Source of the DNA: Pyrodictium abyssi
Lineage (GTDB): Archaea > Thermoproteota > Thermoprotei_A > Sulfolobales > Pyrodictiaceae
Assembly (NCBI RefSeq): GCF_036323395.1
Contig: NZ_AP028907.1
Location: 570,001-602,000 of the forward strand
DNA length: 32,000 bases
Direction: 5' to 3'
Shown here: positions 2,064 to 29,006 of the stretch, one piece after another
Position numbering within the stretch: the first letter of the stretch is position 1
Layout of the letters: each line of letters opens with the position of its first letter
Translations under genes and position numbers: made by a program
Notes under the pieces: model-generated
What the model saw: only the letters and a program-made list of their open reading frames with translations
The model's database searches: none
Told to the model about the DNA's origin: nothing

Positions 2064-3212
2064 GTGAACATCAAACTAAACCTAGTGGTAGCCATAGCCA
2101 TGATTGTGGTTGGCGCTATTCTGCTCATACCTGCCCTGGACCGCTACTGCCCTAGCTGCGTCGCCGAGCGCAGCATATACCCGTTCACAGCTATGATGAC
2201 CGCCTACATCACCTACGCGGGATTCGCTGCAGGTCTCGTGCTAGTCGCCTCGCTCTGCAAGCTCATGGGCTGGCTCGACGACAAGTGGGCGAGCCACACA
2301 CTCTGGGCAGCGCTCGGCCTACTAGTAGCAGCGTGGATAACAGTGCTCCTCGACCTCGGCCGCCCCGACCACGCAGTCTGGCTTCTGCTAAACTGGCAGC
2401 CCGGCAGCAGAGTGGCATGGATGCCAGTCTTCTACACCGTGCTAACATTGCTACTGCTAGTACTCCTCCTCGGCCACATAAGAGGAGGCAACACCCGCTC
2501 TAACATGGTGCTACTAGCCGCTGCTGTCGTCGCTGCTGCGCTGCTAGAGCTTAACCTGGGCAGTGTCTTCGGCTTCGCTGTAGGCGTCCCAGCCTGGCAT
2601 GGGCTTTATCCTGCATTCTCGTTCCTTGTAGCCGGTGTTGCTGGTGGTGCAGCGGCTGCAGCCCTCCTAGCTCCTCTGGGTGCAAGGCTCCACGGTTCTG
2701 GCGGTACACCGCCGGTACGCCCTCTTGCCGGCCTAGCTGTTGGCGCCGCGCTGCTCTACCTGGTGATGGAGTACTGGAGGCTACTACAGGCCGGCTATGA
2801 CCCGGGTCTACGCGCCTTCTTCAAGGCTGCTGGCACGAGCCTCTGGCTGGAGCTAGGCCTCGTAGCGGCTGCGGTTGCCCTACTGTCGTTCGCCTATGTA
2901 AAGCGGAGCTATCATGGTCTAGCCGTAGCCTCTGTGATCCTCCTGGCCGGCCTAGTGGCCGCAAAGCATAGCTTCATTATACACGGCCAGGAGGCTAGGC
3001 TAGAGCCCTCACTGGTAGCCCCCGTGAACCCGTACGAGGCCCTCTACGGGGATACAGCATACCACGTATCTGGCACCGATGCAGCCGCTATCGCCGCGGC
3101 TATTCTCCTAGGGCTAGGCGTCTTCGCCCTAGGCGAGCTCCTCCTAGCGCTCGAGCCGGGCGAGAAGCCCGCAAGGCTACTCCTCTTCCGCAGCATCAGT
3201 GGTAAAAGCTAG
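2064..3212 (+). CDS. NrfD/PsrC-like integral membrane anchor subunit of a molybdopterin oxidoreductase
   Basis: GTG 2064 has a Shine-Dalgarno-like box. The 382-aa product has about 9-10 hydrophobic helices, matching the size and topology of NrfD/PsrC anchors. Its stop lies 18 nt before the catalytic-subunit ATG, so the two are in one operon. Confidence 0.82.
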   Translation: MNIKLNLVVAIAMIVVGAILLIPALDRYCPSCVAERSIYPFTAMMTAYITYAGFAAGLVLVASLCKLMGWLDDKWASHTLWAALGLLVAAWITVLLDLGRPDHAVWLLLNWQPGSRVAWMPVFYTVLTLLLLVLLLGHIRGGNTRSNMVLLAAAVVAAALLELNLGSVFGFAVGVPAWHGLYPAFSFLVAGVAGGAAAAALLAPLGARLHGSGGTPPVRPLAGLAVGAALLYLVMEYWRLLQAGYDPGLRAFFKAAGTSLWLELGLVAAAVALLSFAYVKRSYHGLAVASVILLAGLVAAKHSFIIHGQEARLEPSLVAPVNPYEALYGDTAYHVSGTDAAAIAAAILLGLGVFALGELLLALEPGEKPARLLLFRSISGKS

Positions 3213-3230
3213 GCATAGGAGGTGGTACAC

Positions 3231-5852: not shown

Positions 5853-5876
5853 CACGCTATGCGGGGTGGCTAGCCT

Positions 5877-6518
5877 ATGACCCGGTACGCGATGGTAATA
5901 GACCTGGGGAAGTGCGTCGGCTGCTCAGCATGCGTGGCTGCATGCATAGCTGAGAACCTCAACAGCCCCACGTACTACCAGCCGCCGCCGCTGGCGAAGC
6001 TGCTAGGCCTGGTGGAGGAGGCCCGGCGGGAGGAGGCTAGGACGCTGATACACGAGCTGCTCTGGACGCGCACAAGCGTGCACCGCGTCTACGGCGGCGG
6101 CAGCATGACGGTGTACCACCTCATCTGCCAGCACTGCGACAACGCGCCATGCGTCACAGTATGCCCCACGGGGGCCAGCTTCCAGCGCCGCGACGGGATA
6201 GTGCTGGTGAACCCCGGCAAGTGCATACTCTGCGGCTACTGTATAGCAGCCTGCCCCTACGGCGCGCGCCACGTGAACCCCTTCACCCGGACCGTCGACA
6301 AGTGTACGTTCTGCGTACACAGGCTAGAGCAGGGCAAACAGCCGGCATGCGTAGAGACCTGCCCTACCGGGGCCAGGATACTAGGCGACCTAGAGGACCC
6401 CCGAGACCCCGTAGCGAGGCTCGTAGCGAGCGGCCAAGCCCGGCCAGGCTCCCCTGGAGCAGTCCTAGGCCCCACAGTGCCCCGGGTCTACACCGTGCCG
6501 CCCCAGAAGAAGAGCTAG
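5877..6518 (+). CDS. four-cluster 4Fe-4S ferredoxin-type electron-transfer subunit (PsrB/NrfC/DmsB-like)
   Basis: The 213-aa product carries the Cys motifs CVGCSACVAAC, CQHCDNAPCVTVCP, CILCGYCIAACP and CTFCVHR..CVETCP. It starts 24 nt after the catalytic-subunit stop. Confidence 0.93.
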   Translation: MTRYAMVIDLGKCVGCSACVAACIAENLNSPTYYQPPPLAKLLGLVEEARREEARTLIHELLWTRTSVHRVYGGGSMTVYHLICQHCDNAPCVTVCPTGASFQRRDGIVLVNPGKCILCGYCIAACPYGARHVNPFTRTVDKCTFCVHRLEQGKQPACVETCPTGARILGDLEDPRDPVARLVASGQARPGSPGAVLGPTVPRVYTVPPQKKS

Positions 6519-6554
6519 AGGCCACGCTAGATACGCCCTGGGCCAGCGGTACAC

Positions 6555-6563
6555 GGTTTTTAT
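6555..6563 (+). terminator. oligo-T tract after the molybdoenzyme operon
   Basis: A T5 run at 6557-6561 lies about 40 nt after the TAG stop at 6518. Confidence 0.3.
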
Positions 6564-6788
6564 ACTACAAGCCACGGCTCTCCTTATAGATCCTGGTATT
6601 CCGCGCCCCGAGCCCTATGTGCAGTGTCTCTGTCTCACCGGCTTCCTGTATACCGGAGAGTGTCCACGTCATGGGCGGCGTGGGCGAGACGTTGGAGAGG
6701 TTCTACAGCAGATGGGGCTGGCCAGAGAACCCCTCTGGCAGTGAGGCCTGCGAGCGCTTCAACGCGCTGCTAGACTACGCCCAGGCCC

Positions 6789-7292
6789 ATGGCGTCTGTG
6801 AGGCTAGCAGGCCTCGTGGAGCGGGGCAGCGTAGCTGTGCTCGACGTCACTGCTGGCAGCGGTATCGCGGGCGCAGCCTTCGCAGCCGCCCTAGCGCGGC
6901 TAGGCGCCAGGGTGAGGCTCACAGCCACGGACCTGCGCAGAGACGTGCTCGAGAAGGTTCATGGGTGGCTACGTCTAGCGGGCGTAGAGGACCGCGTCGA
7001 AGCCGAGACGGTGGTAGCTGATGCTGCCCGGCTCCCCGAGAAGCTGGGCTGCTGCTTCGACCTGGCAGTCATCTGGGGGAGCTCGCTCCCGCACTTCTCG
7101 CCCTGGCGGCTCCTGCTAGCACTGGCGAGCCTGAGGGAGCTACAGCCGCGCCACGGCGTGCTGCTTGTCGAACAGCGCGACCTCCTGCCAAGGCTGCTCT
7201 TCAACAACCTCTACGCGAGGATCAATGTCGAGTATGCAAAGGAGGACGGCCGTGGTGTAGTGGGAGTGCACGCAGGGTATGATCCAGCTTAG
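6789..7292 (+). CDS. class I SAM-dependent methyltransferase core, possibly the middle piece of a frameshifted gene
   Basis: VLDVTAGSGIAG matches motif I (GxGxG), followed by RVRLTATDL (acidic post-beta2 residue). Protein-like sequence continues in other frames both upstream (6671-6790) and downstream (7279-7650). Confidence 0.65.
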   Translation: MASVRLAGLVERGSVAVLDVTAGSGIAGAAFAAALARLGARVRLTATDLRRDVLEKVHGWLRLAGVEDRVEAETVVADAARLPEKLGCCFDLAVIWGSSLPHFSPWRLLLALASLRELQPRHGVLLVEQRDLLPRLLFNNLYARINVEYAKEDGRGVVGVHAGYDPA

Positions 7293-13105: not shown

Positions 13106-13852
13106 CTAGAGGCCTAGCTGCTCTAGGAGCTTCCTGGCTATCTGCTCTGTGTCCCTGGCCATCTCGGTGGCTAGGAGCTTCTCGGGGCTGCCTAGGGCGT
13201 CTTCTACGCCTGGGTCGTAGCGTATGCGGCCTAGGTAGCGGGCCTTGTACCGCTCGGCGAGCTCCTCGAGGCTGCCTGGGCCTGTGGCCATGTTCTCTAC
13301 GAGGTAGCGGTCTACGCCCTGCTCTTCTAGGATGGCTAGTAGCCGTTCAACGCCTACGCGGGCTAGCCGGGAGGGGGTGGCGACGGCTAGGACTCTGGGC
13401 CCGGGGAGGTACTCGAGTGTGTCGAGGGCCTCGTCGCGGAGCCCCGGCGGGGTGTCCACGACGAGGAGGTCTAGCTCGCCCCAGTTGGTGACCGCTAGCA
13501 CCTCCCGGATCGCGTCGTCTACGGCGTGGCCGCGGAGCGGGGTCGGCTTATCCCAGGTGTAGAACGCTACGGTCATGAACCTGACGCCCGCCACCTCTGG
13601 GGGTACTACGCCGTCCCTCTCCTCGGGCTGGAGCCTCCTCGGGTCGACGCCGAGGGCTATGTGGGCGGAGGGGCTGGTGACGTCGAGGTCTAGGAGGCCT
13701 ACCCGGCGGCCCATCCGGGCCGCGTGGAGCGCGGTCAGCACCGCTACCAGGGTCTTGCCGACGCCGCCCTTAGCGCTCATAACCGGGACTACCGCCTTCA
13801 CCCTGGAGAGCATCAGCCTGGCCCCGGCCAGCCGGGGGTCGATGGAGCCCAT
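13106..13852 (-). CDS. Mrp/MinD-family P-loop ATPase, likely ATPase-type HypB (Ni-insertion partner of HypA)
   Basis: The ATG is at 13852 (MGSIDPRL). The product has the deviant Walker A SAKGGVGKT, plus LLDLDVTSPS and LLVVDTPPG. It starts 18 nt downstream of hypA. The longer ORF to 14290 overlaps hypA with Arg/Pro-rich sequence. Confidence 0.86.
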   Translation of the reverse strand: MGSIDPRLAGARLMLSRVKAVVPVMSAKGGVGKTLVAVLTALHAARMGRRVGLLDLDVTSPSAHIALGVDPRRLQPEERDGVVPPEVAGVRFMTVAFYTWDKPTPLRGHAVDDAIREVLAVTNWGELDLLVVDTPPGLRDEALDTLEYLPGPRVLAVATPSRLARVGVERLLAILEEQGVDRYLVENMATGPGSLEELAERYKARYLGRIRYDPGVEDALGSPEKLLATEMARDTEQIARKLLEQLGL

Positions 13853-13869
13853 ACGCTCCACGCCCGGCG

Positions 13870-14277
13870 TCACCCCGCGGTCTCCTCCGAGCGCTTGACG
13901 GCTAGGGCTAGGCGGACGCCGCGGCCACTGGTTATCTCGTAGTCGCGGCTCCCGCAGAACGGGCAGCGGACGAAGCTGTAGACCGCCTCGGGGACGAAGT
14001 GTATGGCCTCGCGCGTGGCCTCGTCGAGCTCCACGGCGTCTAGGCCCCACTCGCGGCCGCAGACGCGGCAGCGGAACCGGGCGGGCTCTGTCTCGTAGCG
14101 CACCCGGGCCCCGGGCGCGATCTGGGGCAGAGCCTCGCCCAGGTAGGTCTCGACAACCCCCCGGTCGACGTTCTGGAGCTCGCCGAGGTAGACGACTATC
14201 TCCTCCAGCTCGTAGCCCCTCTTGACGGCCTCCTCGACCTCGGCTATAATGGCGCGTATGAGGGCCCACTCGTGCAA
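13870..14277 (-). CDS. hypA: hydrogenase nickel-incorporation protein HypA
   Basis: The start is TTG 14277. The N-terminus is MHEWALIRAII. The zinc motif is CRVCG..CPFCGS, and the length is 135 aa. Confidence 0.9.
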   Translation of the reverse strand: MHEWALIRAIIAEVEEAVKRGYELEEIVVYLGELQNVDRGVVETYLGEALPQIAPGARVRYETEPARFRCRVCGREWGLDAVELDEATREAIHFVPEAVYSFVRCPFCGSRDYEITSGRGVRLALAVKRSEETAG

Positions 14278-14330
14278 GAACCCGGCACACCCAGGGAGGA
14301 CGGGAGGTGCACCAAGAGGGGTTGAAGAGC

Positions 14331-14765
14331 CTAGCCCCCGTCGCTACACCTGCTAGCTACGCGCAGGATGCGGAGCGCCAGCAGCGCCGCGTTCTCCGCC
14401 GCGCCTATACCCACCCCGGCCACCGGCACGCCGCGCGGCATCTGGACTATCGAGAGCAGCGCGTCCACGCCCCGCAGCGGCCCTGCCGGCACCGGCACGC
14501 CTATGACCGGCTTAGCGGTCCGGGACGCTATGTAGCCGGGCAGCGCCGCCGAGAGCCCCGCCATGGCTATGTACACGTCTATCCCCTCGTCGTTCTCCCT
14601 AATGTAGCGGTCCAGCGCCTCCGGGTCCCGGTGCGCGCTAAGCACCCGCACCTCCGTCTCCACCCCAGCCTCCCTGAGCACCCTCTCCGCCCGCTCAGCA
14701 TACTCCATGTCGCTCCGGCTCCCGATGATGATGGCCACCCGGCCACGGCACGCAGAGCCGGACAC
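14331..14765 (-). CDS. purE: PurE (N5-CAIR mutase / AIR carboxylase family)
   Basis: The product carries [42 protein letters not shown] and [13 protein letters not shown]. Confidence 0.9.
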
Positions 14766-15354: not shown

Positions 15355-15886
15355 CCCCGAGCACGGCGAGCACAGTGCCTACGAGCCACACTGCTTCGCC
15401 CGGCAGTCCGCCCCACGGGAGGAACCCGAGCGGTAGCCCAGCGAGCTGGAGAGCTACACCAGCCCGGACCATGCGGCCGCAGGGCTCGCTTCCCAGCCTC
15501 CAGAGACCCACAGCTACTAGCATCGTGCCCACAAACCCTGCCACAATGCCGGCAAAGGCTAGCGCCATAGCCGCGAACACGAGCATGCTGGCGTAGCCGC
15601 CGAGGGACGACGCGCAGCCAGCAGAGGCTGCACGGCCAGCAGCCAAGGCGAGCCCCGCAATAGCTAGCGCCATCAGGGCTAGGCTAGCAGCTTCGAGCCT
15701 GGCGCCGGTCAGGCCTACGCCGTAGCCCGGCCGGTAGAGCCTCAGCAAGCCAAACCCCTTCCAGAGAAGGTAGACCGGCAGGGAGTAGACCGCGAGATGC
15801 GCGAAGACCGCGATAAAGACCCCCACAGGCGGCGGGCCCTCAGCAGCCCGGGGAGCCCTATCCAGCACCGCTACAGGATAGTCCAC
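15311..15886 (-). CDS. polytopic membrane protein, unknown function
   Basis: The start is GTG 15886. The 191-aa product has about 5-6 hydrophobic Ala/Leu/Gly-rich segments. Confidence 0.6.
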   Translation of the reverse strand: MDYPVAVLDRAPRAAEGPPPVGVFIAVFAHLAVYSLPVYLLWKGFGLLRLYRPGYGVGLTGARLEAASLALMALAIAGLALAAGRAASAGCASSLGGYASMLVFAAMALAFAGIVAGFVGTMLVAVGLWRLGSEPCGRMVRAGVALQLAGLPLGFLPWGGLPGEAVWLVGTVLAVLGARRIRGRVQRGRAS

Positions 15887-15972
15887 GAAGACAATAGCTC
15901 TATTACGAACATCTTGTAGAACGCCCTGTCATCCTCGCCCGGCACGACTATAAGAACGCGCTTCACCGTCAT
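15871..15972 (-). pseudogene. 33-codon stub resembling the N-terminus of a Toprim-like partner protein
   Basis: ATG 15972 follows GGAGG. MTVKRVLIVVPGEDDRAFY parallels MARLRILVEGCLDAAL of 17579..18253. The stub ends inside the start of the membrane-protein gene. Confidence 0.3.
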
Positions 15973-15992
15973 TGCGGGCGTTCCTCCCGCCC

Positions 15993-17365
15993 CTAGGCTC
16001 TGCGGAGGTCTAGGGCCGGCTCTTCCACCATGCCTAGCGCGTCCTCGCCCTCCCAGGAGCCCTTCACCGTGACCCTGCCGCGTACGAGCTGGAGGTGCTT
16101 GACCACAGTTCCCCCAGTACCCCGGCCTCCCTTGCCGCGTGGAGGAGGGCCTTCAGCATCTCTATGCTCTGCGTTGCTACGAGCACCTGGTTCCCCCTCA
16201 GCCACTATGCTGGCTACGAGCCCCGCAACAGCCTCGAGGCCGTCAGGGTGCACAAAGGCCTCCGGAGTATCCACCAGGGCCAGGGAGCCACGCGGCGAAG
16301 CAGCATAGAGGAGTCCCAGGAGCACAGCAGCACGCTGCCCATCACTCAGCCGGTAGACGCTTATCCTCCTGCCACAGGTGCTCCTCGCGTGCAGCTCGCG
16401 GCCAATTAGCTCAAAGCCACTAAACCGGGGTATGAAGGCCCGCAGGAGCCGCACTGCGTCCCGCTCCCTGGGCAGCCCGCGCTGCTTGACACTGTCGTAG
16501 TAGAGGGACTCGAACATGAACGGGCGATACGCGAAACCCGGGTGAAACACAAGGATACTCTTCCTTGTATCTAATGGTGTACTCCTCTCGAAGCGACGGC
16601 TTGCCGCCATAGAGTGTATAAGCCAAGTACAGATTGCCCTTATAGAGTCGAATGTATGAGGGAAGTGCCCCTCTAGCACCAAAACGGGGAGACGTTGAAA
16701 GCTCGTATTCCTCTCCTAGCACGTCATGTAGCATATGCAGCAGGTCGCTCAACCTGATCCTTATACTCAGAGAACCATATGGAAACTCATTCATTATTTC
16801 TTCTATGCCTTGATAGAATGACTCAATCACACGAAGCGTATCCTTCAATGTTAAGCTATAGGCTTCCGAATCGACTATTCTTCCAACAATATGGGGTCTT
16901 ATACGCGTAAACATATGATCCAGCGACAGAGGGTCGGCAGCCTTAACCAGTATCGCTTACACGTTCTATGCCATAATCTTCGCCATTCCCGCTCTCTTCT
17001 GATTCTCTAACGAGACCGGCTAAGAACGATGGAATCGCAGTCTGTTGCCTCATAGTCCTTATCATTGCAAGCGCCGGTGCTATGCTCTCCCCATGCCCTG
17101 TCAGTGCAACGGTATAGCCTAGAGCCTCTAGAAGCGACGTCTTACCAGACGCATTGCGGCCCACTATGATGGTGAAGCGCTGGAGACCGTTGACATCTAC
17201 CTCTAGGCCCTCCAGCTCGCCTTCGCTAATGTACGGTAGATATGCCTTAACCTCTTCTATATGTGTCACAGCCACCTCTACCCCAAAGACACGACTATAC
17301 CGAGAAGCACAATAAATGGTCCTATGCCGAGAAAAGCCGGTACCTCGGTTAGGCTCTATCCGCAT
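15993..17365 (-). pseudogene. ABC/AAA_21-like ATPase, a paralogue of 18276..19394, broken by at least four frameshifts
   Basis: The Walker A is GRNASGKTSLLEAL (ORF 16943..17365). The middle part lies in ORF 16420..16914. LSDGQR and LALVDTPEAFVHPD lie in ORF 15993..16682. NQVLVATQSIEMLKALLHAAREAG lies in a third frame. The junctions are near 16950, 16548, 16195 and 16100. GC content is lower than in the neighbouring genes. Confidence 0.75.
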
Positions 17366-17493
17366 TAGGTTGTATATAGCGAGAATCCCAGTATCTCAGC
17401 AAAGACTAGACTACATCCTACTTCAACGCTGAGAAGACCGGGCTACAGAGCCACCAGCTACAACAGAATACAGCAAGCACACTATAATGCCAC

Positions 17494-17524
17494 ATAGCAA
17501 CGATAGCAAATTAATAGCAAATTA
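17494..17524. repeat. short tandem direct repeat ATAGCAA / ATAGCAAATTA x2 in an AT-rich intergenic region
   Basis: The sequence reads ATAGCAA-CG-ATAGCAAATTA-ATAGCAAATTA. It lies between the stop of 17579..18253 and the start of the ATPase pseudogene. Confidence 0.6.
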
Positions 17525-17578
17525 CTATGTTTATCCTAGTGCCCCTTCTGCCGGGTAGTCCCGATTCTTGCCTATGCT

Positions 17579-18253
17579 CTAGGCTTGGCGGGCTATAATG
17601 CTTCTTATGAGCTGCTGGTAGCGTCTCGCGGCAGGTGTGTCGGCTAGGTCGAGCTTGTCTAGCGCCGCTCTAACGTCTATGCCGCAGTGGCGTTCTGCCG
17701 GGACGAGTACTGGTGTCCCGCCTCCCCCGGCGCAGGCTGCTAGGAAGAGGACTGGCTCGTACTTGGCGTAGTCGCGGGAGCAGCGGCTGCTGGGGCAGCG
17801 GCTGCATGCCTGCGGCGCCTCTGCCGGCTCGTAGCTGTACTTCTCCTCGAGCATCTCCCCTAGCACGTCCTCTACTGTGCCGCGGCAGGGGCTGCCGCTG
17901 CACCAGAACGATATGTAGCTGGTCCTCCGCGCCCCCTGGCTCACAACCGTTACCTCGAGGAGCGGGGGCGGCTGCGGGCCGCGCTTCAGCCTGGTCTCGA
18001 CGGCTAGTCCTCGCCTCTTCGCGTGCCTCTCCAGCACCCTGATGACCTCTTGCACCCGCTTGTCGACGCCTGCGTCGGCGTCGATAATGCCTAGTATCGT
18101 TGCCCGGGAAGCAGCTAGCCCCACCGTCTGCCTCACCACGCCCGTCCATCCCCCGGCTAGCTCGGCCTCGGCGTCTACGCCAGCCTTGCCCGCGAGCCAC
18201 TCGGCTAGAGCAGCGTCGAGGCAGCCCTCGACCAGGATGCGGAGCCTCGCCAT
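17579..18253 (-). CDS. Toprim-like (DUF4276/RloB/AriB-like) protein with a Cys-rich insert, partner of the upstream ATPase
   Basis: ATG 18253 lies 22 nt after the ATPase stop and follows a GGGAGGG box. RILVEGCLD is followed about 50 aa later by IIDADAG (Glu + DxD, the Toprim arrangement). Cys motifs are CSGSPC and CSRCPSSRC. Confidence 0.65.
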   Translation of the reverse strand: MARLRILVEGCLDAALAEWLAGKAGVDAEAELAGGWTGVVRQTVGLAASRATILGIIDADAGVDKRVQEVIRVLERHAKRRGLAVETRLKRGPQPPPLLEVTVVSQGARRTSYISFWCSGSPCRGTVEDVLGEMLEEKYSYEPAEAPQACSRCPSSRCSRDYAKYEPVLFLAACAGGGGTPVLVPAERHCGIDVRAALDKLDLADTPAARRYQQLIRSIIARQA

Positions 18254-18275
18254 ATCCCGGGGGCCCTCCCAGGGG

Positions 18276-19394
18276 CTAGAGGAGCGTGTAGCTCAGCCTC
18301 ACATCCCTGCTACCCGCTATATGGCTCAGCGCCTCGCACCCCGCCAGCCTCATGGAGCGGAGGCTGTCCCCGTCGCGGTCCAGCACCACCAGGGCTAGGA
18401 GGCGCTCGAGCTCATCCTCGCTGTCGGGCTCGGTGCATGCACGGCGCGACTCCTCCAGCAGCCGTGCCGGGCTCCTCCAGGCAGCACGGTCCCGGGTCAC
18501 CAGCGCGGCCGCGAGCATCCTGGCAGCCTCCAGGCTCTGCGTCGTGATGACGAACTGCTTCCCCCTCCTCGCCGCCTCGGCAGTCCTAGCGGCGATGGCC
18601 TCGAGTAGCTCGGGGTGCATTGCGGACTCTATCTCGTCCACGAGGATTATGTCCGCTAGGCTTAGCAGCAGTAGGTACTGGAGGCCACGCTGAAGACCCC
18701 GGCCAACACTGTAGAAGATAACCTTCCTCGGCCTCTCCTGGCCCGCGTCCTCGACGACGTAGGCGGCCATCTGGTCCCAGTCGTCGCTAGCGAGATCCAC
18801 CTTGAACCTCCTCCCGGCTATCTCGAGCGTAAGCGCCTCTAGGCTCTCCTGCTCCCGCTTCAACCTGCCAATAACCATGTCGAAGAAGTCATACGGTATT
18901 ATACCCGGGGTCAGCACGCCTACGCCGAGCTCCTGGCTAAAACAGTCCCTCCCATCAGCCCTCACGCCTATACCAGCCGGCTCCAGGGTGTAGGTCAGGC
19001 TACACTCCCGCCTAGTCGCCCTAAGCTCCACCTCGACGACGGTAACCAGCTGAGCGCCACGCGACTCCTGGCGAGACTCCCTCGTTATCTCCGTGCAGAC
19101 CTCCTCGCCGCCGAGGGAGACACAGGCCCTCGCCGACGCAGCCCCCGGCGGCACGAGCGAGGCGATTGAGTGCTTCTCGCTGCCACGAGCAGCATACATA
19201 ACCATCAAGTAGTAGTTCGCAAGCTTCACGTCAGCGTAGTTTAGGACGAGGCTCGTAGCCGCAGCCTCAAGGAGACTAGTCTTACCAGCATTATTAGGGC
19301 CGACCACTATGTTGAGCGCGGCACCGAGCTCCACACTATCCCGGAGACCCCGAAAACCATCCAGAGAAACACGCTCAAGCCGCCCAGCAGCCAA
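18276..19394 (-). CDS. ABC/SMC-like (AAA_21/OLD-N-terminal type) ATPase
   Basis: The Walker A is GPNNAGKTSLLEA, followed by ILVDEIESAMHP and FVITTQSLEAA. The preferred start is TTG 19394, 9 nt after GGAGGGTGG (19412-19404), with a TTTATT box at about 19441-19448. The maximal ORF to 19658 adds Pro/Arg/Gly-rich sequence that is unlikely to be coding. Confidence 0.85.
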   Translation of the reverse strand: MAAGRLERVSLDGFRGLRDSVELGAALNIVVGPNNAGKTSLLEAAATSLVLNYADVKLANYYLMVMYAARGSEKHSIASLVPPGAASARACVSLGGEEVCTEITRESRQESRGAQLVTVVEVELRATRRECSLTYTLEPAGIGVRADGRDCFSQELGVGVLTPGIIPYDFFDMVIGRLKREQESLEALTLEIAGRRFKVDLASDDWDQMAAYVVEDAGQERPRKVIFYSVGRGLQRGLQYLLLLSLADIILVDEIESAMHPELLEAIAARTAEAARRGKQFVITTQSLEAARMLAAALVTRDRAAWRSPARLLEESRRACTEPDSEDELERLLALVVLDRDGDSLRSMRLAGCEALSHIAGSRDVRLSYTLL

Positions 19395-19714
19395 GGCTAT
19401 ACGCCACCCTCCCCGATCCCGGACACAGCCATGCAGCCGGAATAAAGCACCCAGCACAGCACTGGGCGGAGCCAACGCCACAGCATGACGGGGCAGGGGC
19501 ACCGCGGCGCCTACACCTAGCAAGCCCGGCCAGGCACCAGGCCCCCGGCGAGGAAGGCGAGAGACCCGTCCCCTAGGCACCTCTAGCCTGCCGGGCGGCA
19601 GCTGCACGCTGCCGGGGCTAGGAGGCCTCTGCACACCCAGGAGCCCCCCGGGCCGCAACCCCTATAGGACGCCCACGGCAGATAGCCGTCGCGGAGGGCC
19701 CGCGGGCCCCAGGC

Positions 19715-20126: not shown

Positions 20127-20153
20127 GCCGAAGCTATCTACGAGCCCGGAGGA

Positions 20154-20486
20154 CTAGGTAGGTAGAGCCTCCTGCCCGGCCGGAACCTCTCTCCGAGCGG
20201 TCTCGTCTCCGCCTCCAGGCCGTGCTCCCTGGCTAGCCCCGCGAGGGCCCCGGTGGACCGGTATGTATGCTCCGCCGAGGATGCTGTCCCCGATGGCGCC
20301 CCGTGCCTGCCACTCTAGCCTCTCTGCTAGCAGGCTGAGGTGTCTCTCCATTGCGTGGAAGTACTGGAGAAGGAAGCGGCGGTAGCCACGGGCTCTGCTC
20401 CCCCGTATCCTAGTGGCTAACTCGCGGAGCCAGGGGTGCCGTGTCTCCTGTTTCCAGGCGCGGGCTGCGGCCTCGCATGCCGGCAC
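20154..20486 (-). CDS. hypothetical protein (low confidence)
   Basis: This 110-codon ORF has a central part that is protein-like (WLRELATRIRG..FLLQYFHAMERHLSLLAERLEWQ). I recognise no motif. Confidence 0.3.
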   Translation of the reverse strand: MPACEAAARAWKQETRHPWLRELATRIRGSRARGYRRFLLQYFHAMERHLSLLAERLEWQARGAIGDSILGGAYIPVHRGPRGASQGARPGGGDETARREVPAGQEALPT

Positions 20487-20884
20487 CTGTATGCCTCAGA
20501 GCCGGCCGAGGTCCTCGCTGCTGTGGGCGAGGCCGGCCCAGAGCAGGCTCGAGCACTGTGTGCCCCGCGTAGCCGGGTTGATAGCGAAAGGGCAGACTCA
20601 TTAGTAGCCCACGAATGAATACGCCCTTAGGATAGCCGCTGCTAACGTGCTTTGATGAAATCTGCGAGAGGCTGGTAGGCTTGTAGCGATGCTAGACTCC
20701 TATACAGCTATGGTTTGTGTTATTGCTGTGTAGAGAGCTGTTGCTTTCCGTGAAGCAGCTCTAGTATTCTTTTCATTATCTTATCCGAGTTCTTGCTCTT
20801 TGGTATGCGTATTACGGCGTACTGTGTTGCGATTACTATTTCAGTCTCTTCTGTTGTAGCTGGCAACACTGGCCCGTAGCTTAT

Positions 20885-22861
20885 GTGTCCAGGAGTCTCT
20901 CGCGGCGATACTGGGTGCCGGGTGTTACTATTTTGGCTGGGGACGCGCCCAGTATAGGCCAGCTGCTATCCATATGCGGCGGGGAAGAGTACAAGGGCAC
21001 TATGCTTTGTAGGCTTATCAACGCCTATGCTGCGGGCGACCGTGGCGCAGCTGTCAGTCTTGCTCGTGACCTGTTCGGGCTTGTTAGGGAGCTTAGCGGT
21101 GCCGGGAGGGGTGGCGGGCCGCGTATTCTCGTTTCTGTTGGGCCTTCGAGGCACTGGCGCGATTCCTTCATGTATGCTGCTAGGCATGGCCTTGTGCCGT
21201 GGGCCTGTGGGTTTACCCTAGAGGACTCTGTTCTCGAATCCTCTAGGAGCGGTGGCCCGCATTATCGTGCCCTCTTGGATGCTCTTGCGAGGGGCTTCTT
21301 GGAGAGGGATGGCGTGTTTGAGGCTGTGCCGCCGATAATCCTGTATTATTCGAGTGGTGTTAGTGTTATTGGGTTTGGGCTTGTCGTCTGGGCTGACGTG
21401 TCTCCTTTGAGGGCTAGGCTATGGTCTGAAGAGCGTTGTCCGCCGAGCGGCAAGGGCACGTGCTATACCGTGAGATGGTATACGTTGCCTATTGCTCTGG
21501 GCTGTAGGGCTGTCGGCGAGCGGGGGGTTGTCGAGCCTGGTAGAGAGTGTGCTCTGGGCGGGATAGAGGCTGGTTATGCCAGGAACTGTGCTCAGAGTGT
21601 CTCCCGGGATGTTTACCCGCGTCTTGTTGAGGCGTTGCTGCGTGCCGTTGATGGCGGGGCTGGTGCTGAGAGGGTGGGGTATGCTGTTGAGCTGGTCTCC
21701 TCCGCGCTGGGGGAGGCGGGGCCTCCGCGGCCTAGCCGCCTGGACGCGTACCTGGGGGCTGGGCCCTCTGGCGTTGTGGCGGAGAGGGGCTGGAGGGAGG
21801 TCCTAGAGGACCCGGGCACCGTGGAGAGGATTGTCAGGGAGATACATGGTAGGGGTGTCTTCCTCCCGGAGCAGCTTGTCAGGGTTATCGTGTTCCTGGT
21901 CGCGAATGGTAATGTGCTGCTTGCTGGGCCTCCGGGGTACGGTAAGACCCTGCTTGCGAGGGTTATAGCCGGGGTCACCGGCTCGGAGCTCGTGCCTGCC
22001 ACGTGTCATGCTGGGTGGACGCGCTCGGAGTTCATCGGGGGCCCGTACCTCCGCCGGGGCGGCGTGGCCTGGAGGTCTGGCTACCTGGTGCGCGCTGTGG
22101 CTAGGGCTCTCCAGGGCCGCCGTGTCCTGCTGTTGCTCGACGAGGTGAACCGGGCTGAGGTGGACAAGGTATTTGGCGAGTTCTTCACGGTGTTCCCGTC
22201 GCCCTCGGCGGAGGAGTGGAGCATCGGAAGCCTCTGCGATATCGTGTGCGGGGAGAGCAGCGAGGAGGAGAGGGACGAGCCCGCTAGGATACTCTGCAGC
22301 GCGTGTGGTGATAGGGAGAGGCTGCAGCGGGTCCGGGATCTCCTGCGTATAGTCGCCACGATGAATACTGTCGACTATGCTACCGTGTTTGGCGTGGGGG
22401 AGGCGTTTGGGAGGCGCTTCTACAAGGTAGAGTTCCTGGCCTCCTCGGACGCCGGGTACATACTAGAGAGTGAAGTGAGGCCCGTGTTCCGCCACGTTGT
22501 GAAGCGCCTCGGCCTGGCCAGCGACAGGCTGAGGGGCCTCGAGGAGGTGCTCGAGAAGCTGGCTAGGTTCGTGGCGGAGCTTCGTAGGGCTAGGGATGAG
22601 GCTGGTGTAGCGGGTATTGTGGTGACGCAGCTCCCGGTAGGCCCGGCCTTCGTCAGGGAGGTGGTGACCGTGGCTGCTCGTATGCTGGCGGCGGGTGTTG
22701 TCGGGGACCCGGTCTGCGCTGTGGCCCGGGCGATAGGGGCGAGTATCCCGGTGACGGTGCTCGTGGAGGAGGAGTCGAGGGAGAGGCTTAGGAGGGCGTT
22801 GGCCGGCGCCTTCGGGGACGCTGTGGAGGAGAAGTGTAGACTCGTGGCTGGTAGGCCTTGA
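20885..22861 (+). CDS. McrB-like AAA+ (AAA_5) NTPase with an unassigned ~330-aa N-terminal region
   Basis: The start is GTG 20885 after an AT-rich region. The Walker A is GPPGYGKT. LLLDEVNRAEVDKVFGEFF matches Walker B plus the McrB-type DEINRA..KIFGEL element. IVATMNTVDYA parallels MNTADRS, and EAFGRRFYKVEF parallels ALRRRF. Confidence 0.87.
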   Translation: MSRSLSRRYWVPGVTILAGDAPSIGQLLSICGGEEYKGTMLCRLINAYAAGDRGAAVSLARDLFGLVRELSGAGRGGGPRILVSVGPSRHWRDSFMYAARHGLVPWACGFTLEDSVLESSRSGGPHYRALLDALARGFLERDGVFEAVPPIILYYSSGVSVIGFGLVVWADVSPLRARLWSEERCPPSGKGTCYTVRWYTLPIALGCRAVGERGVVEPGRECALGGIEAGYARNCAQSVSRDVYPRLVEALLRAVDGGAGAERVGYAVELVSSALGEAGPPRPSRLDAYLGAGPSGVVAERGWREVLEDPGTVERIVREIHGRGVFLPEQLVRVIVFLVANGNVLLAGPPGYGKTLLARVIAGVTGSELVPATCHAGWTRSEFIGGPYLRRGGVAWRSGYLVRAVARALQGRRVLLLLDEVNRAEVDKVFGEFFTVFPSPSAEEWSIGSLCDIVCGESSEEERDEPARILCSACGDRERLQRVRDLLRIVATMNTVDYATVFGVGEAFGRRFYKVEFLASSDAGYILESEVRPVFRHVVKRLGLASDRLRGLEEVLEKLARFVAELRRARDEAGVAGIVVTQLPVGPAFVREVVTVAARMLAAGVVGDPVCAVARAIGASIPVTVLVEEESRERLRRALAGAFGDAVEEKCRLVAGRP

Positions 22862-24228
22862 AGCCGAGGCGGAGGAGAGGGCTGCCGCCGTACACCGACT
22901 ACCTGGTCAGCCGGTGTGCGAGCCTCTACCTCCTCTTCCCGCGTACAAGCCTGTACTCCATGTCGGCTGGTAGGCCCGGGTACGTGGACACGGTGGTATC
23001 GCTGCTAGCGGCCCACTACATCCTGGTCTACGCGGCGAGGGCCGCGAGGAGCCTTGTCGTGGAGATGCACCGTGTGCTGAGCAGCACTGAGGTAGCGGAG
23101 TCTTACAGCCCTGCAGGCTACCTGGACGTGGCTGCGTCGGCCCGGAGCCTCATGAGGCTCGGTCCCCCGGTGTGGAGGCGGGTGAAGCGCGGCCCCGCCC
23201 CCGTCGACCGCCTATGCCTTTGCGGGCTCTTTGCGAGGATACTCTCCGCGGCGGAGAAGCTCAGCGAGAACACCGGCAGGGTCTACGACCACATGAGAAG
23301 CGTTTACGGGGTAGACGTCGAGGGTTCCCGCCCCCTGAGGCGTCTGCGGCGCCGCGCCGAGAGGGCGAGGGAGGACCTGGCGAGGATGGCTCTGCGCGAG
23401 TGCGGCCGCCTAGCCGCTGCGGGGACGAGTGTCTGCCGGGACGCGTTCACCCGGAGGGGCGGGAGGCTGAGCAGGTACTTCAACATCCTCGTGGATATCG
23501 TGGCGTCTCTCGAGAAGGCGGTGGAGGAGGGCAGGGTGGACCTCGACATTAGGGCTCGGGGCGCCGAGGCCGGCCAGGCGGCCCGGAAGCTGGCTCTCCG
23601 GATGGCTGTTGAGCGGCTGTACGAGCTCTACACGCTCTACATAGTCCTACGGGCCCTCTCAAGGCTCGGCGAGGTCCGGAGCGAGGACAGCACTATACTC
23701 GTCGAGTTCGGAAAAGGCATACGCGTATTCTACAATAGCCGCCCGAAGGCCGGAGACAAGCCTCTGAGCAGAGTAGCGCTAGGCGAATCCGACCACCTAG
23801 ACGACGGGGACCTGGAGAGGCTCTCGGGTATACCCGATATAACACTCGTCATAAACAACAGGGTGAAGGTAGTCATAGAGGTCAAGCACAGCTACAACAT
23901 AGGCTACCTGGCGCTCGCCAGGTTCAAGACCATAGCGTACATACACGAGTACGACGCGGACGCAGGGATACTAGTATACCCTGGCCTAAGCCATACACGG
24001 AAGAGAGGACAGGCTCGCGGGATGCTCGACGAGGAGTACGAGGCTACACGGACAGTCCTAGAGAGGGCCGAGACAAGAGGACACGCCACGATAAGACTTA
24101 GGGACAATGCAAGCCTCTACATCATGCCCCTCATCCCCGAGGAGAAGCGAGAACAAGACAACGTAGACAAAATGTACAAAGTCCTAAACAGCATCATACG
24201 AGAAGCAGACGCCTCAGGACTAGCTTAG
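22858..24228 (+). CDS. McrC-like partner with a C-terminal PD-(D/E)xK nuclease motif
   Basis: TTG 22858 overlaps the upstream TGA (TTGA). The product contains LYELYTLYIVLRAL, GIPDITLVINNRVKVVIEVKHS (D..ExK) and GILVYPG. ATG at about 22960 is an alternative start. Confidence 0.78.
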   Translation: MKPRRRRGLPPYTDYLVSRCASLYLLFPRTSLYSMSAGRPGYVDTVVSLLAAHYILVYAARAARSLVVEMHRVLSSTEVAESYSPAGYLDVAASARSLMRLGPPVWRRVKRGPAPVDRLCLCGLFARILSAAEKLSENTGRVYDHMRSVYGVDVEGSRPLRRLRRRAERAREDLARMALRECGRLAAAGTSVCRDAFTRRGGRLSRYFNILVDIVASLEKAVEEGRVDLDIRARGAEAGQAARKLALRMAVERLYELYTLYIVLRALSRLGEVRSEDSTILVEFGKGIRVFYNSRPKAGDKPLSRVALGESDHLDDGDLERLSGIPDITLVINNRVKVVIEVKHSYNIGYLALARFKTIAYIHEYDADAGILVYPGLSHTRKRGQARGMLDEEYEATRTVLERAETRGHATIRLRDNASLYIMPLIPEEKREQDNVDKMYKVLNSIIREADASGLA

Positions 24229-26132: not shown

Positions 26133-26405
26133 TTGATGGCCTGGAACACCCAGCCTGCGGAAAAGCTAATTGCTTCAACGCACATAGTGTCCAGGCAGGG
26201 GCTAGAATTGTCCAGAGTCATAAGGGTGAGGTACGAGGATGGTGTACTGAAGCCGTTGAGTAGTGTTGACCTTGAGGAGGGCAAGGAGTATAAGGTGATA
26301 GTGGAGGAGGACATAGACGAGCTAATCAAGAGGTACCGTGGTGTTCTTGGGGAATCGTCTGTTGAGGAGTTCCGGGAGCTCGAGGAGGAGGCACAGGCCC
26401 AATGA
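26133..26405 (+). CDS. DUF104 (AF2212-like) antitoxin
   Basis: VIRVRYEDGVLKPLSSVDLEEGKEYKVIVEE is the family signature. The true start is probably internal (GTG at about 26187 or a nearby TTG). An ATGA overlap couples it to the PIN gene. Confidence 0.8.
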   Translation: MMAWNTQPAEKLIASTHIVSRQGLELSRVIRVRYEDGVLKPLSSVDLEEGKEYKVIVEEDIDELIKRYRGVLGESSVEEFRELEEEAQAQ

Positions 26406-26860
26406 TATGCCTCGATACGAACGTCATCTACCACTTCCTCTTTGAGACAGAGCTAACTAGCGCCTCAGAGAGAATCCTCCGGGAGGCCATTGCAGAGGGC
26501 ATGGCTATCCCCATGATAGTATACAATGAGTTGCTCTACATAGTGGGCGCCAAGATTGCTAGGATGAAATACGGTGTTAGGGGAAAATACTCCTTCCGGA
26601 TGCATATAGCCAGGCACGGATTCCCCGGAGAAGCCATAGAAAAGGTTAACGGTTTCATCCGGGACTTCAAAGTAACCATGCTAAGGGATTATCAAGACCC
26701 AGACGAGCTAGTCAAGACAATTAAGCTCTACAGGCTGGCGCCAAACGACGCACAAATAGTCTTAACCTGCAAGAATAGCGATATAGAGACACTGGCAACA
26801 TTCGACGAAGACTTCAAGCGGGTTCCATGGCTCAAAGTAGTCCCTCGATTCTTGATGTAG
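26402..26860 (+). CDS. vapC: PIN-domain toxin VapC
   Basis: The product reads MICLDTNVIYHFL..NDAQIVLTCKNSDIETLATFDEDFKRV. It is intact at 152 aa. Confidence 0.9.
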   Translation: MICLDTNVIYHFLFETELTSASERILREAIAEGMAIPMIVYNELLYIVGAKIARMKYGVRGKYSFRMHIARHGFPGEAIEKVNGFIRDFKVTMLRDYQDPDELVKTIKLYRLAPNDAQIVLTCKNSDIETLATFDEDFKRVPWLKVVPRFLM

Positions 26861-27356: not shown

Positions 27357-28106
27357 TTGCGGTTGTCCGACTTGTTGCTCTACATTGTGTCGAGGTTTCC
27401 ACGGGGTATTGGCCGTACCAGGCTTATGAAGCTCTTGTTCCTAGTTGATGCTGTAGCTGCTGAGAGGCTTGGGCGCGTGGTTAGTGGTGTGGAATGGCGC
27501 CGCTGGCGCTACGGGCCTTTCTCCAAGGAGGTGCTTAATGTCCTGGACGAGCTCGTGGAGGAGGCGTTGCTGGCCCTAGATCCGGGCCCGGAGGTGAGGT
27601 ATGTAGCGCTAGCGGAGCCCCCTGAGCTTCCTGGGGATGTGAAGGAGGTCGTGGACTACGTTGTTGATAGGTATGGGTTTATGCCGCTAACGGAGCTCCT
27701 TAAGGAGGTATACGATAGGTATGACATACATGGTATGGCTATGGGTGAGAGGATTATTCTTGACTGGCGCCGGGAGCTCCTGGAGCTTGCCGAGAAGGCG
27801 GACAGTGATATGGACGCCCTCGTGGAGCTTATGGGTAGGCTCTACGACGCGTATAGGGATGCTCTCGAGGCCCTGCCTGGCGAGACCCTAACCCTCTACA
27901 ATATAGCCGCAGTGTACCTCGCCAGCCGCGACCCGGAGAGGCTGAGGAAGCTAACCACAACGCTCCTTGACGTACTAGACGAGGTCAAGAAGGAGATATC
28001 GACGGGTGGGAAGGGAGGGGCTGTCATCTCCGCCGAGACGCGGCGGAGGATAGCAGAGCTGTACCGTGAGCTGCGTAGGGCTGCCGTAGAGGCCCTGGAG
28101 GGCTAG
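27357..28106 (+). CDS. Panacea/DUF4065 (SocA-like antitoxin) domain protein with a helical C-terminal extension
   Basis: RTRLMKLLFLVDAVAAERLGRVVSGVEWRRWRYGPFSKEVLNVLDELVEE matches the DUF4065 pattern (KLqKLLY...w.yGPv). The start is ambiguous (TTG 27357, 27363 or 27372, or GTG 27387). Confidence 0.78.
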   Translation: MRLSDLLLYIVSRFPRGIGRTRLMKLLFLVDAVAAERLGRVVSGVEWRRWRYGPFSKEVLNVLDELVEEALLALDPGPEVRYVALAEPPELPGDVKEVVDYVVDRYGFMPLTELLKEVYDRYDIHGMAMGERIILDWRRELLELAEKADSDMDALVELMGRLYDAYRDALEALPGETLTLYNIAAVYLASRDPERLRKLTTTLLDVLDEVKKEISTGGKGGAVISAETRRRIAELYRELRRAAVEALEG

Positions 28107-28115
28107 GCGGACGGC

Positions 28116-29006
28116 TTGCAGTTTCTCTACCTGGACTCCTACTACTTCTACGCGCCCATTCCCCGGGTTCTCTGGCTCAGGGAGAAGCTGGGAAAGACGG
28201 GTATCCGCGGTTATAGGCTCCTCTATATGCAGTTCTCGAGCCCCAGCTATTTCCTAAAGAGCCTAACCCGTGTCATAGCCGGCTACAGTGTAACTAGCAT
28301 AGCAGTGCCAGCGTACAGCACTACAGCGCGTAGAGGGGGTAGAGGTGGTGCACTGAAGCCTCTGGAGAAGCTTCTCAAGATACTAGGCCCGCTGTTCAGC
28401 GGGAGGGAGAGGAGCAAGACCATCAACGTGCTTCACCTGGCTAGGCTGGTGGGGGAAGAGCAGGCAGCCATACTGGATTTCCTCATATTCCTGTACAGTC
28501 ACGCAGAGAGAGCGGAGAGAATCATCGCTGAGGGTGCATGCGACGCTAGGGTAGAACGTAGAGTGCCACGACACGTGGCTAAGCAGCTCCAGAGGCTTCC
28601 GGCGCCAGAGAGCCTTGCCCAGCTTATCCGGCAGCAGGTCTCTCTATACAAGCTGTATGCCGGGTACATGGCGTGTAGCGCCTGCCGGCTCCTGGGGCTC
28701 AGCTATCCACACGGCATGAACACTATAAACAGGCTCGATAACCTCGGGGAGGGAGACCTTACAGTGTTCCTGTCCACCCGTTGTCCGCAGTGCAGCAGCT
28801 CATGCCCGCCGGGGAAACACCGAGACGACATAGCGAGAGCGATCACGCTCCACAGATACGCGGCACAGAGGCCCGGCCACAAAATAGTCATAGCGAGTAT
28901 TGAATCCGTTAAGAAGCCTCCTAGGGACGAGAGCAAACGCGAATGCTTCTCCTGCCTCGCAGACTGCTTAGCATCACTCCTACCTAATATCGACACCATA
29001 ATGTAG
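28116..29006 (+). CDS. uncharacterised Cys-rich protein, candidate partner or toxin of the Panacea-domain protein
   Basis: The 296-codon ORF starts 10 nt after the upstream stop. It has a possible HTH-like stretch (INVLHLARLVGEEQAAILDFLIFLY) and Cys pairs (CSAC..CPQC, CFSC). I recognise no family. Confidence 0.6.
   Translation: MQFLYLDSYYFYAPIPRVLWLREKLGKTGIRGYRLLYMQFSSPSYFLKSLTRVIAGYSVTSIAVPAYSTTARRGGRGGALKPLEKLLKILGPLFSGRERSKTINVLHLARLVGEEQAAILDFLIFLYSHAERAERIIAEGACDARVERRVPRHVAKQLQRLPAPESLAQLIRQQVSLYKLYAGYMACSACRLLGLSYPHGMNTINRLDNLGEGDLTVFLSTRCPQCSSSCPPGKHRDDIARAITLHRYAAQRPGHKIVIASIESVKKPPRDESKRECFSCLADCLASLLPNIDTIM

Follow-up and report, generated by a model that had tools for sequence, protein, structure and literature searches.

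A rare archaeal pair of an ABC-type ATPase and a DUF3226-like protein beside the remnant of a second module in Pyrodictium abyssi

On the minus strand of a 32,000-nucleotide stretch of the Pyrodictium abyssi genome (contig NZ_AP028907.1, positions 570,001 to 602,000; hereafter the window), two neighbouring pairs are found in which an ATPase gene is followed by the gene of a small partner protein. One pair (ATPase-1 and partner-1) is intact and the other (ATPase-2 and partner-2) is broken. The locus raises the question of which family the pairs belong to, whether the broken pair is a copy of the intact one, and what the intact pair might do for its host. In the analysis presented here, the intact pair proves to be a rare relative, on a divergent archaeal branch, of candidate antiviral systems that have been catalogued in bacteria, and not a new kind of system. 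On balance, we consider it probable that the pair is a module in which an ABC-type ATPase serves as sensor and a small nuclease as effector, forming a divergent archaeal branch of the ATPase and DUF3226 family listed in PADLOC as the candidate system PDC-M38.

The intact pair and its conservation

ATPase-1 is encoded by an intact open reading frame (ORF) of 372 codons, which runs from a TTG at 19394 to 18276 on the minus strand. It contains GPNNAGKTSLLEA, ILVDEIESAMHP and TTQS, exactly as an earlier note made from the sequence alone had read them. The motifs of the protein comprise a Walker A (GPNNAGKT), a signature-like GRGLQR, a Walker B (ILVDEIE), SAMHP and TTQS. The NCBI annotation (PABY_06350) gives a protein of 352 residues whose start lies 20 codons downstream of the TTG; however, the 372-residue form is favoured because homologues of ATPase-1 have 361-395 residues. 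Upstream of the gene (19404-19446, minus strand), putative expression signals can be read from the sequence: 19414-19404 holds a Shine-Dalgarno-like GGGGAGGGTGG, and an A/T-rich TTTATT lies at 19446-19441, some 50 nt ahead of the TTG.

Profile searches place ATPase-1 among the ATPases of defence systems. In Pfam it matches AAA_21 (E 2.1e-16; 61.3 bits, cut-off 27) and AAA_15 (E 1.8e-11; 44.7 bits, cut-off 32.1). The best matches in PADLOC are AriA (1.4e-16), AbiLi (8.6e-13), PDC-M38A (1.4e-12), mad3 (1.9e-11) and HEC-01A (2.9e-11), with the top match confined to the C-terminal 65 residues of AriA model PDLC02980, which is generic and 304 positions long. The earlier note would have been wrong had the protein grouped with housekeeping ABC or SMC proteins. 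It does not group with them, because the NCBIfam housekeeping models (RecF 7e-6, Rad50 5.6e-5, and SMC-related models) touch only a segment of about 45 residues around Walker A and score far below their cut-offs. These comparisons support the assignment of ATPase-1 to the AAA_15/AAA_21 ABC class of defence type. Moreover, among 23 homologues of 36-78% identity, the invariant positions are found in Walker A (G32, N34, G37, K38, T39), the signature-like motif (G231, R232, G233, Q235, R236), Walker B (D253, E254) and the MHP motif (M259, H260, P261).

The ATPase-1 gene ends with a TAG at 18278-18276 and is followed by an intergenic spacer of 22 nt (18254-18275), in which a GGGAGGG box at 18270-18264 precedes the ATG of partner-1 at 18253. 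The two proteins are therefore encoded by separate ORFs, divided by a stop codon and a spacer, with a ribosome-binding site of its own for partner-1, and the layout looks operon-like. Partner-1 (17579-18253, minus strand) is an intact protein of 224 residues that reads RILVEGCLD, IIDADAG, CSGSPC and CSRCPSSRC. The gap, the box and these motifs had all been described in the earlier note, and all of them are present. The window is chromosomal, and ATPase-1 and partner-1 match NCBI proteins of P. abyssi with 100% identity.

The arrangement of an ATPase gene followed by a partner-1 homologue was found in 9/9 informative loci, as the earlier proposal of a syntenic pair had required. In the window and in the loci L009, L010, L008, L003, L004, L012, L013 and L014, the partner gene begins 10-33 nt after that of the ATPase. 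Amino-acid identity is 86% for L009/L010, 55% for L008 (a metagenome-assembled genome (MAG) of Pyrodictiaceae), 37% for L003/L004, 35% for L012, 34% for L013 and 24% for L014. In L001 a partner-1 gene also lies about 30 nt after the ATPase gene and is frameshifted; L002, which ends at the contig edge, is uninformative and was left out of the count. A scan of GTDB genomes with a narrow alignment gave a match in one Pyrodictiaceae MAG only.

Comparison with the L009 orthologues gave ratios of non-synonymous to synonymous substitution (dN/dS) of 0.14 for ATPase-1 and 0.25 for partner-1; both genes are under purifying selection. As judged from the sequences compared, the ATPase-1/partner-1 module is real and maintained. 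In the same alignment (window 17579-19394 against L009 1979-3797), synonymous divergence (dS) reached 0.86 in the ATPase gene and 0.29 in that of the partner. The three-fold gap may reflect recombination within the cassette or a constraint on composition.

Partner-1 and its relation to DUF3226

Partner-1 belongs to a very small family. When 1.84 billion cluster representatives were searched exhaustively with a profile, 28 proteins were returned at E <= 1e-3, and nearly all of the ten clusters looked up were singletons, with 1-2 contigs each. In the alignment of the 28 sequences, which are 21-86% identical to the window protein, E9, G10, C11, D13, D58, D60, E128, C150 and C190 are invariant, and two other cysteines are conserved in 93% (C174) and 82% (C153) of the sequences. 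The protein consists of an N-terminal alpha/beta domain (residues 1-142) and a helical C-terminal region that carries C150-x2-C153, C174 and C190.

The AlphaFold2 model of partner-1 is confident, with a predicted local distance difference test score (pLDDT) of 93.7 and a predicted template modelling score (pTM) of 0.90. Its core is formed by beta(4-8)-alpha-beta(28-32)-alpha-beta(52-59)-alpha-beta(84-90), after which the chain continues with a beta-hairpin and, behind it, helices. E9 comes directly after strand 1 (4-8), D58 and D60 stand at the end of strand 3 (52-59), and D13 and E128 are placed at helix starts. This is the layout of a Toprim domain, in which, on a four-stranded parallel beta-alpha core, a Glu ends strand 1, a DxD ends strand 3 and further acidic ligands are present. 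Based on this topology, the five acidic residues are predicted to cluster in space, and partner-1 likely has a Toprim-like, metal-dependent active site.

The Glu and DxD arrangement that the earlier note had taken as the mark of a Toprim domain is thus present, with five invariant acidic residues in Toprim order, but fold searches do not single out Toprim proteins. The assignment draws on motifs and weak profile matches, because the fold searches (described below) rank generic Rossmann-like domains first. One family member matches the Pfam model OLD-like_TOPRIM (E 0.16) from strand 1 to the DxD. The window protein itself has no Toprim, OLD-like_TOPRIM, DUF4435, DUF4276 or RloB match in Pfam, and the family gave no match to P2 Old in hhalign.

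Of the Pfam families, the window protein matches DUF3226 only, which was among those suggested for profile searches, and this match stays below threshold. This Pfam family (PF11536) is matched by 20 of the 28 members at E < 0.1, the best at 2.2e-6, and the highest-scoring member scanned individually (P0003) reached 26.2 bits, still under the 27-bit cut-off. In PADLOC, the members match PDC-M38B (8 members, to 3.4e-5), HEC-01B (4), AbiLii (2), mad4 (2) and AriB (1). All of these are small partners of ATPase systems, and the matches cover residues 1 to about 140.

Further evidence came from the neighbourhood of remote ATPase relatives. Two proteins that resemble ATPase-1 remotely, P0033 (E 5e-4) and P0030 from a Kofleriaceae bacterium (E 3.5e-7), each have a true DUF3226 gene immediately behind them (2.8e-54 and 3.9e-12, respectively). 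The pair at locus L015 is a clear PDC-M38 system (A 3e-59, B 8e-41), whose partner matches DUF3226 at 2.8e-54. When the 28-sequence family was compared with this L015 protein by hhalign, a probability of 87.8% and an E-value of 3.3e-6 over 122 columns were obtained, and the motifs EG..D, GG..GV.R, DA.D, W and G.hED.L were lined up. From the DUF3226 genes that follow P0033 and P0030 and from this alignment, partner-1 can therefore be placed as a divergent relative of DUF3226.

The similarity to DUF3226 ends at about residue 146, before the C-terminal cysteines of partner-1. Bona fide DUF3226 proteins have few or no cysteines (none in the L015 protein and two, at unaligned positions, in that of L016). 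On this comparison of sequences, the cysteine set is an addition of the Pyrodictium-type branch of partners. A search of the literature on DUF3226, PF11536 and PDC-M38 found no paper describing them and no report of a test of PDC-M38. DUF3226 has no solved structure, and a search of the PDB with a bona fide DUF3226 protein gave chance-level matches only.

Among known systems, the intact pair is most like PDC-M38, a PADLOC candidate made of an AAA_15/21 ATPase (A) and a DUF3226 protein (B), with which it shares gene order and tight spacing (as in L015). It differs in that the window partner falls below the Pfam threshold, and in that the C-terminal CxxC...C...C and the Cys of EGCxD are absent from the L015 and L016 proteins. 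HEC-01 (Hma-embedded candidate 01) likewise pairs an ABC ATPase with a TOPRIM-like protein, which its authors relate structurally to the Toprim metal site of OLD (Payne et al., 10.1101/2024.01.29.577857). It resembles the intact pair in having a separate small partner and in the HEC-01A match of ATPase-1, and it differs in being embedded in bacterial Hma systems. The four family members match HEC-01B weakly, at about 3e-4 and within the N-terminal 60-85 residues; the window protein itself gave no match.

In PARIS, the ATPase and the nuclease are also encoded by two genes, and the nuclease AriB binds its metals through E26, D30, D88, E90 and E122 (PMC11464382). The same acidic order, E-x3-D...D-x-D/E...E, is found in E9, D13, D58, D60 and E128 of partner-1. 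However, AriB is a DUF4435 protein of about 35 kDa, whereas partner-1 has no DUF4435 match and only 1/28 members reaches the AriB model (E 0.013). In AbiL (AbiLi with AbiLii/RloB) and MADS3-4, too, an AAA_15/21 ATPase is accompanied by a small protein of Toprim-like type (PMC11464382); 2/28 members match AbiLii (E 0.0059), there is no RloB match in Pfam, and 2/28 match mad4 (E 0.027). In the OLD family (P2 Old, Thermus scotoductus OLD and GajA), the first Toprim motif is LLVEGxxD/E, of the same form as ILVEGCLD of partner-1, but ATPase and Toprim domain are fused in one polypeptide, unlike the separate genes of the window. The earlier note had likened partner-1 to AriB, to AbiL/RloB and to OLD. 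By these sequence comparisons, membership in AriB/DUF4435, AbiLii/RloB or OLD is not supported, and the nearest family is DUF3226/PDC-M38B instead.

The decayed pair and the variable island

Directly downstream of the intact pair lies the ATPase-2 pseudogene (15993-17271, minus strand), which derives from a different AAA_15/AAA_21 family of about 436 residues. Its pieces are found in the ORFs 17365-16943, 16914-16420, 16682-15993 and 16186-16064, across three reading frames, and match AAA_23 and AAA_21 in Pfam. Joined together, they give a conceptual protein of 429 residues, to which intact 436-residue homologues are 65%, 62% and 58% identical over 99% of the length. Alignment with the intact orthologue of L005 (83% nucleotide identity) revealed four frame-disrupting indels in the coding region: 25 nt inserted near 17006, 41 nt deleted near 16587, an additional G within a G run near 16197, and the loss of one nucleotide near 16110. 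Around the last two, the long ORF stays open and the ATQS/H-loop segment (16064-16186) is scrambled out of frame. The GC content is 0.48 in 16501-17500 and 0.62-0.70 around it. These results agree with the earlier count of at least four frameshifts in DNA of lower GC content. The start, which had been set at 17365, is corrected to a GTG at about 17271 that aligns with the start in L005. Sequencing error was considered as the source of the frameshifts and rejected, because four indels, including those of 25 and 41 nt, cluster in 1.3 kb while flanking long ORFs are intact, and because the partner gene is truncated too.

The ATPase-2 gene is followed by a stub of 33 codons, MTVKRVLIVVPGEDDRAFYKMFV, at 15871-15972 on the minus strand (partner-2). 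Over its first 26 or so codons, VLIVVPGEDDRAFYKMFV, it shares homology with the N-terminal ends of the 204-272-residue proteins encoded after intact ATPase-2 orthologues; the remainder has been deleted, and the stub continues into the beginning of the gene that follows (15886). Members of this partner-2 family are found in L005 (6336-6659), L006 (2944-3558), L007 (6429-7247) and the window, always after ATPase-2-type ATPases. They begin with (V/I)AVPGxxDRAFY and have further motifs D-x-E and ALEDF. From this homology, the stub is a true remnant of ATPase-2's own partner gene. The family has no Pfam or PADLOC match, and in hhalign its profile is not significantly similar to that of partner-1 or DUF3226.

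The stub had been taken for the start of a second Toprim-like protein. Its being a partner remnant stands, but its Toprim-like nature is a motif-level guess only, because in the partner-2 family a Pro takes the place of the Toprim Glu. One may speculate, from motifs, on an echo of Toprim in hhhh-x-G-x-x-D, D-x-E and ALEDF. In L006, the similarity of partner-2 to that of L007 is lost in the C-terminal part; this, like the frameshift of partner-1 in L001 (7131-7840), could be decay or assembly error.

ATPase-1 and ATPase-2 resemble each other in tblastn only at the Walker A/B segments (39% over 46 residues and 34% over 61 residues), and ATPase-2 is therefore placed in a different family. The term paralogous, used for them before, holds at the level of the superfamily but not of the family. 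Nor are the two pairs the intact and decayed copies of one duplication, since the families of ATPase and partner both differ. The broken pair is what remains of a second, now dead module with this architecture, whose ATPase and partner come from other families; it stayed behind when the genes of the island turned over.

Further genes of defence type lie nearby. Upstream of the intact pair, at 20148-20591 (minus strand), a type II DNA methyltransferase survives as its C-terminal third, with 82% identity to L007 1660-2101 in blastn. The methyltransferase of L007 is intact (374 residues; PADLOC MTase_II 1.8e-11), and the remnant in the window is a second decayed defence gene of the island. In the divergent orientation, an McrBC-like pair occupies 20885-24228 (plus strand). 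Its first gene encodes a 658-residue AAA_5/McrB-like NTPase (AAA_5 3.3e-16), which matches the NCBIfam McrB model at 1.7e-9, below the cut-off. The second overlaps it by 4 nt and encodes a 456-residue protein that has no family match and carries a PD...(E)VK motif, PDITLV...VVIEVKHS.

Comparison with relatives showed that these genes come and go. The same McrBC-like pair also adjoins the ATPase-2 pair in L005. The window and L005 differ by about 2.6 kb, and L005 4595-4985 corresponds to window 20295-17284. L005 thus has the McrBC-like and ATPase-2 pairs without the ATPase-1 pair. In L009 the ATPase-1 pair is found behind the same upstream DNA and is followed by other DNA downstream. In L007 a type II methyltransferase and a 936-residue prokaryotic Argonaute (pAgo; 2133-4943, minus strand; PADLOC 9e-30) stand ahead of an ATPase-2-family pair (5001-7247), and the pAgo sits where P. 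abyssi has the ATPase-1 pair. Taken together, the McrBC-like pair, the methyltransferase remnant, the pAgo of a relative and the absence of the pair from L005 support the view of the locus as a variable island with defence-type turnover, in keeping with the earlier suggestion. At the cassette junctions, a repeat search and pairwise local alignments performed no better than shuffled controls, and no flanking repeats were found; a 55-bp repeat suggested there by MAFFT was spurious. Scans of the window for tRNAs and Rfam families were empty.

Beyond the McrBC-like pair, the segment 24200-26400 has a GC content of 45-50%, compared to 60-70% elsewhere, and holds only short ORFs without family matches. 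This DNA, located between the McrBC-like pair and a VapBC module, may be foreign or degraded. At 26133-26860 (plus strand), a likely antitoxin ORF overlaps a PIN (VapC-type) gene by 4 nt (PIN 5e-16). At 27357-29006 (plus strand), a gene for a SocA/Panacea-domain protein (1.5e-9) is followed after 10 nt by that of an unannotated 296-residue protein. Both are probable toxin-antitoxin modules. At the other border of the island (13106-14765, minus strand) are housekeeping genes for a Mrp/NUBPL-type ParA ATPase, for HypA (same strand, overlapping frame) and for PurE (AIR carboxylase).

Proposed function and competing explanations

For a sensor ATPase with a nuclease effector, we infer complex formation, a trigger, a nuclease activity, its substrate and a role for the cysteines as follows. 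By analogy to PARIS and the OLD family, ATPase-1 would oligomerise and keep the 224-residue partner inactive. A viral or plasmid cue would alter the nucleotide state of ATPase-1, and the partner would be released or activated. Partner-1 might then cleave DNA or tRNA/RNA with divalent metal ions held by E9, D13, D58, D60 and E128 at the C-terminal edge of the parallel beta-sheet, so that the infected cell would cease to grow or the invader to replicate. The cysteines (C11 in EGCxD and the C-terminal CxxC...C...C) probably hold a structural metal or are linked in disulfides, which would stabilise partner-1 at about 100 C.

Several results weigh against this reading. A His at the H-loop is canonical in ABC ATPases (TTHS-type motif); in ATPase-1 the position is a Gln (Q286 of TTQS), invariant in the 23 homologues, and the ATQS of ATPase-2 has a Gln as well. 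Because this invariant Gln stands for the H-loop His, ATP turnover of ATPase-1 may be slow or unusual. The family assignment of partner-1 itself falls short of the usual thresholds, with 19.4 bits (E 1e-3) against Pfam DUF3226, below the gathering score of 27. For PDC-M38, in which A and B proteins are found adjacent, the window offers the A match (1.4e-12) and the adjacency, and the B match is weak (E 0.077).

Structural comparison does not favour Toprim. In a fold search with the full partner-1 model against PDB and BFVD, no match fell below E 1e-3 and the top 50 included no Toprim protein; the best matches were gephyrin E sub-domains, with a template modelling (TM) score of 0.34. With the domain-only model (residues 1-142, pLDDT 91.3), gephyrin E sub-domains again came first (E 3e-4, TM 0.46-0.51), and Thermus scotoductus OLD (6p74) was found at rank 32 (E 0.037, probability 0.97, TM 0.40, 103 columns). 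The structural comparison proposed in the earlier note therefore yielded a confident model with the layout of Toprim but no preference for OLD. Searches of PDB sequences with the single protein, the full-length profile and the N-domain profile gave chance-level matches only.

In E. coli assays, HEC-01, the nearest tested analogue, was not protective (bioRxiv 10.1101/2024.01.29.577857). Moreover, no relatives of either protein were found among 72,556 plasmids by tblastn or on IMG/VR viral contigs by pattern scans. A survey of whether the pair sits in defence islands of related genomes had also been called for. In several relatives the ATPase-1 pair is surrounded by housekeeping genes rather than defence genes.

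Four other explanations were considered. In the first, the metal would do more than stabilise: partner-1 would be a Toprim-like nuclease gated by a metal cluster or by redox, with the Cys of EGCxD and the CxxC...C...C acting as a Zn or Fe-S site, or as a reversible disulfide, that couples activity to metal or redox state. Partner-2 would then be a second unannotated effector family, maybe of the same fold without the catalytic Glu. To our knowledge, such a layer of metal or redox control has not been described for any ABC-ATPase/Toprim defence system. We regard this proposal as possible but rather unlikely.

In the second explanation, the pair would be a selfish toxin-antitoxin or addiction module, in which the partner would act as a toxic nuclease that the ATPase neutralises, and which would be kept by post-segregational killing without any sensing of viruses. 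The compactness of the two-gene cassette, its variable neighbours and its polymorphic presence among close relatives would fit such a module, as would the VapBC and Panacea-type modules nearby and the partner genes that are broken in some MAGs, as expected for a counter-selected toxin. However, the lack of relatives on the plasmids and viral contigs searched, the lack of an insertion signature or flanking repeats, and the purifying selection on both genes all speak against it. Its mechanism also overlaps that of abortive-infection defence, since in PARIS the nuclease is likewise sequestered by the ATPase (PMC11464382). A purely selfish module is thus considered unlikely.

The third explanation is that partner-1 is not a nuclease at all but a metal or redox adaptor or regulator, with a Zn or Fe-S centre held by cysteines and with acidic residues that bind metal or nucleotide without catalysis. 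The conservation of C11, C150, C153, C174 and C190 (82-100%) could be read in this way. So could the ranking of non-nuclease Rossmann-like domains (gephyrin E, lumazine synthase) as the best structural matches, and the lack of a significant sequence match of partner-1 to any solved nuclease. Yet bona fide DUF3226 proteins keep the acidic motifs with few or no cysteines, so the acidic cluster and not the cysteine set is the core of the family, and the acidic pattern and its placement at strands 1 and 3 match the catalytic sites of Toprim proteins. This makes an adaptor role decidedly improbable.

Lastly, RecR is a Toprim protein with a Cys4 metal site. A housekeeping pair for DNA repair or recombination like the bacterial RecF-RecR, suggested by the RecF and Rad50 matches to the Walker A segment of ATPase-1, the combination of a Toprim-like core with CxxC...C...C in partner-1 and the housekeeping genes that flank some loci, is nevertheless highly improbable: those matches are short and far below their cut-offs, the best ATPase-1 matches are ATPases of defence systems, the pair is absent from the collinear locus of a close relative (L005) and sits in a variable island, and the reading is disfavoured by the rarity and patchiness of the partner-1 family.

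If the pair is indeed a sensor ATPase with a nuclease effector, that paradigm would reach organisms that grow near 100 C, and the locus would be a source of thermostable proteins for structural work. The pair is not surprising in kind. The locus gives a confidently modelled and very rare archaeal branch of DUF3226, to which a cysteine set has been added and in which candidate catalytic residues are defined, so that DUF3226 gains an active site that can be tested. Close relatives offer natural "knock-outs" and presence/absence variants of the pair. The locus is also a worked case of turnover in a defence island of Pyrodictiaceae, where an McrBC-like pair, what is left of a methyltransferase, a pAgo and the two ATPase modules exchange at one place.

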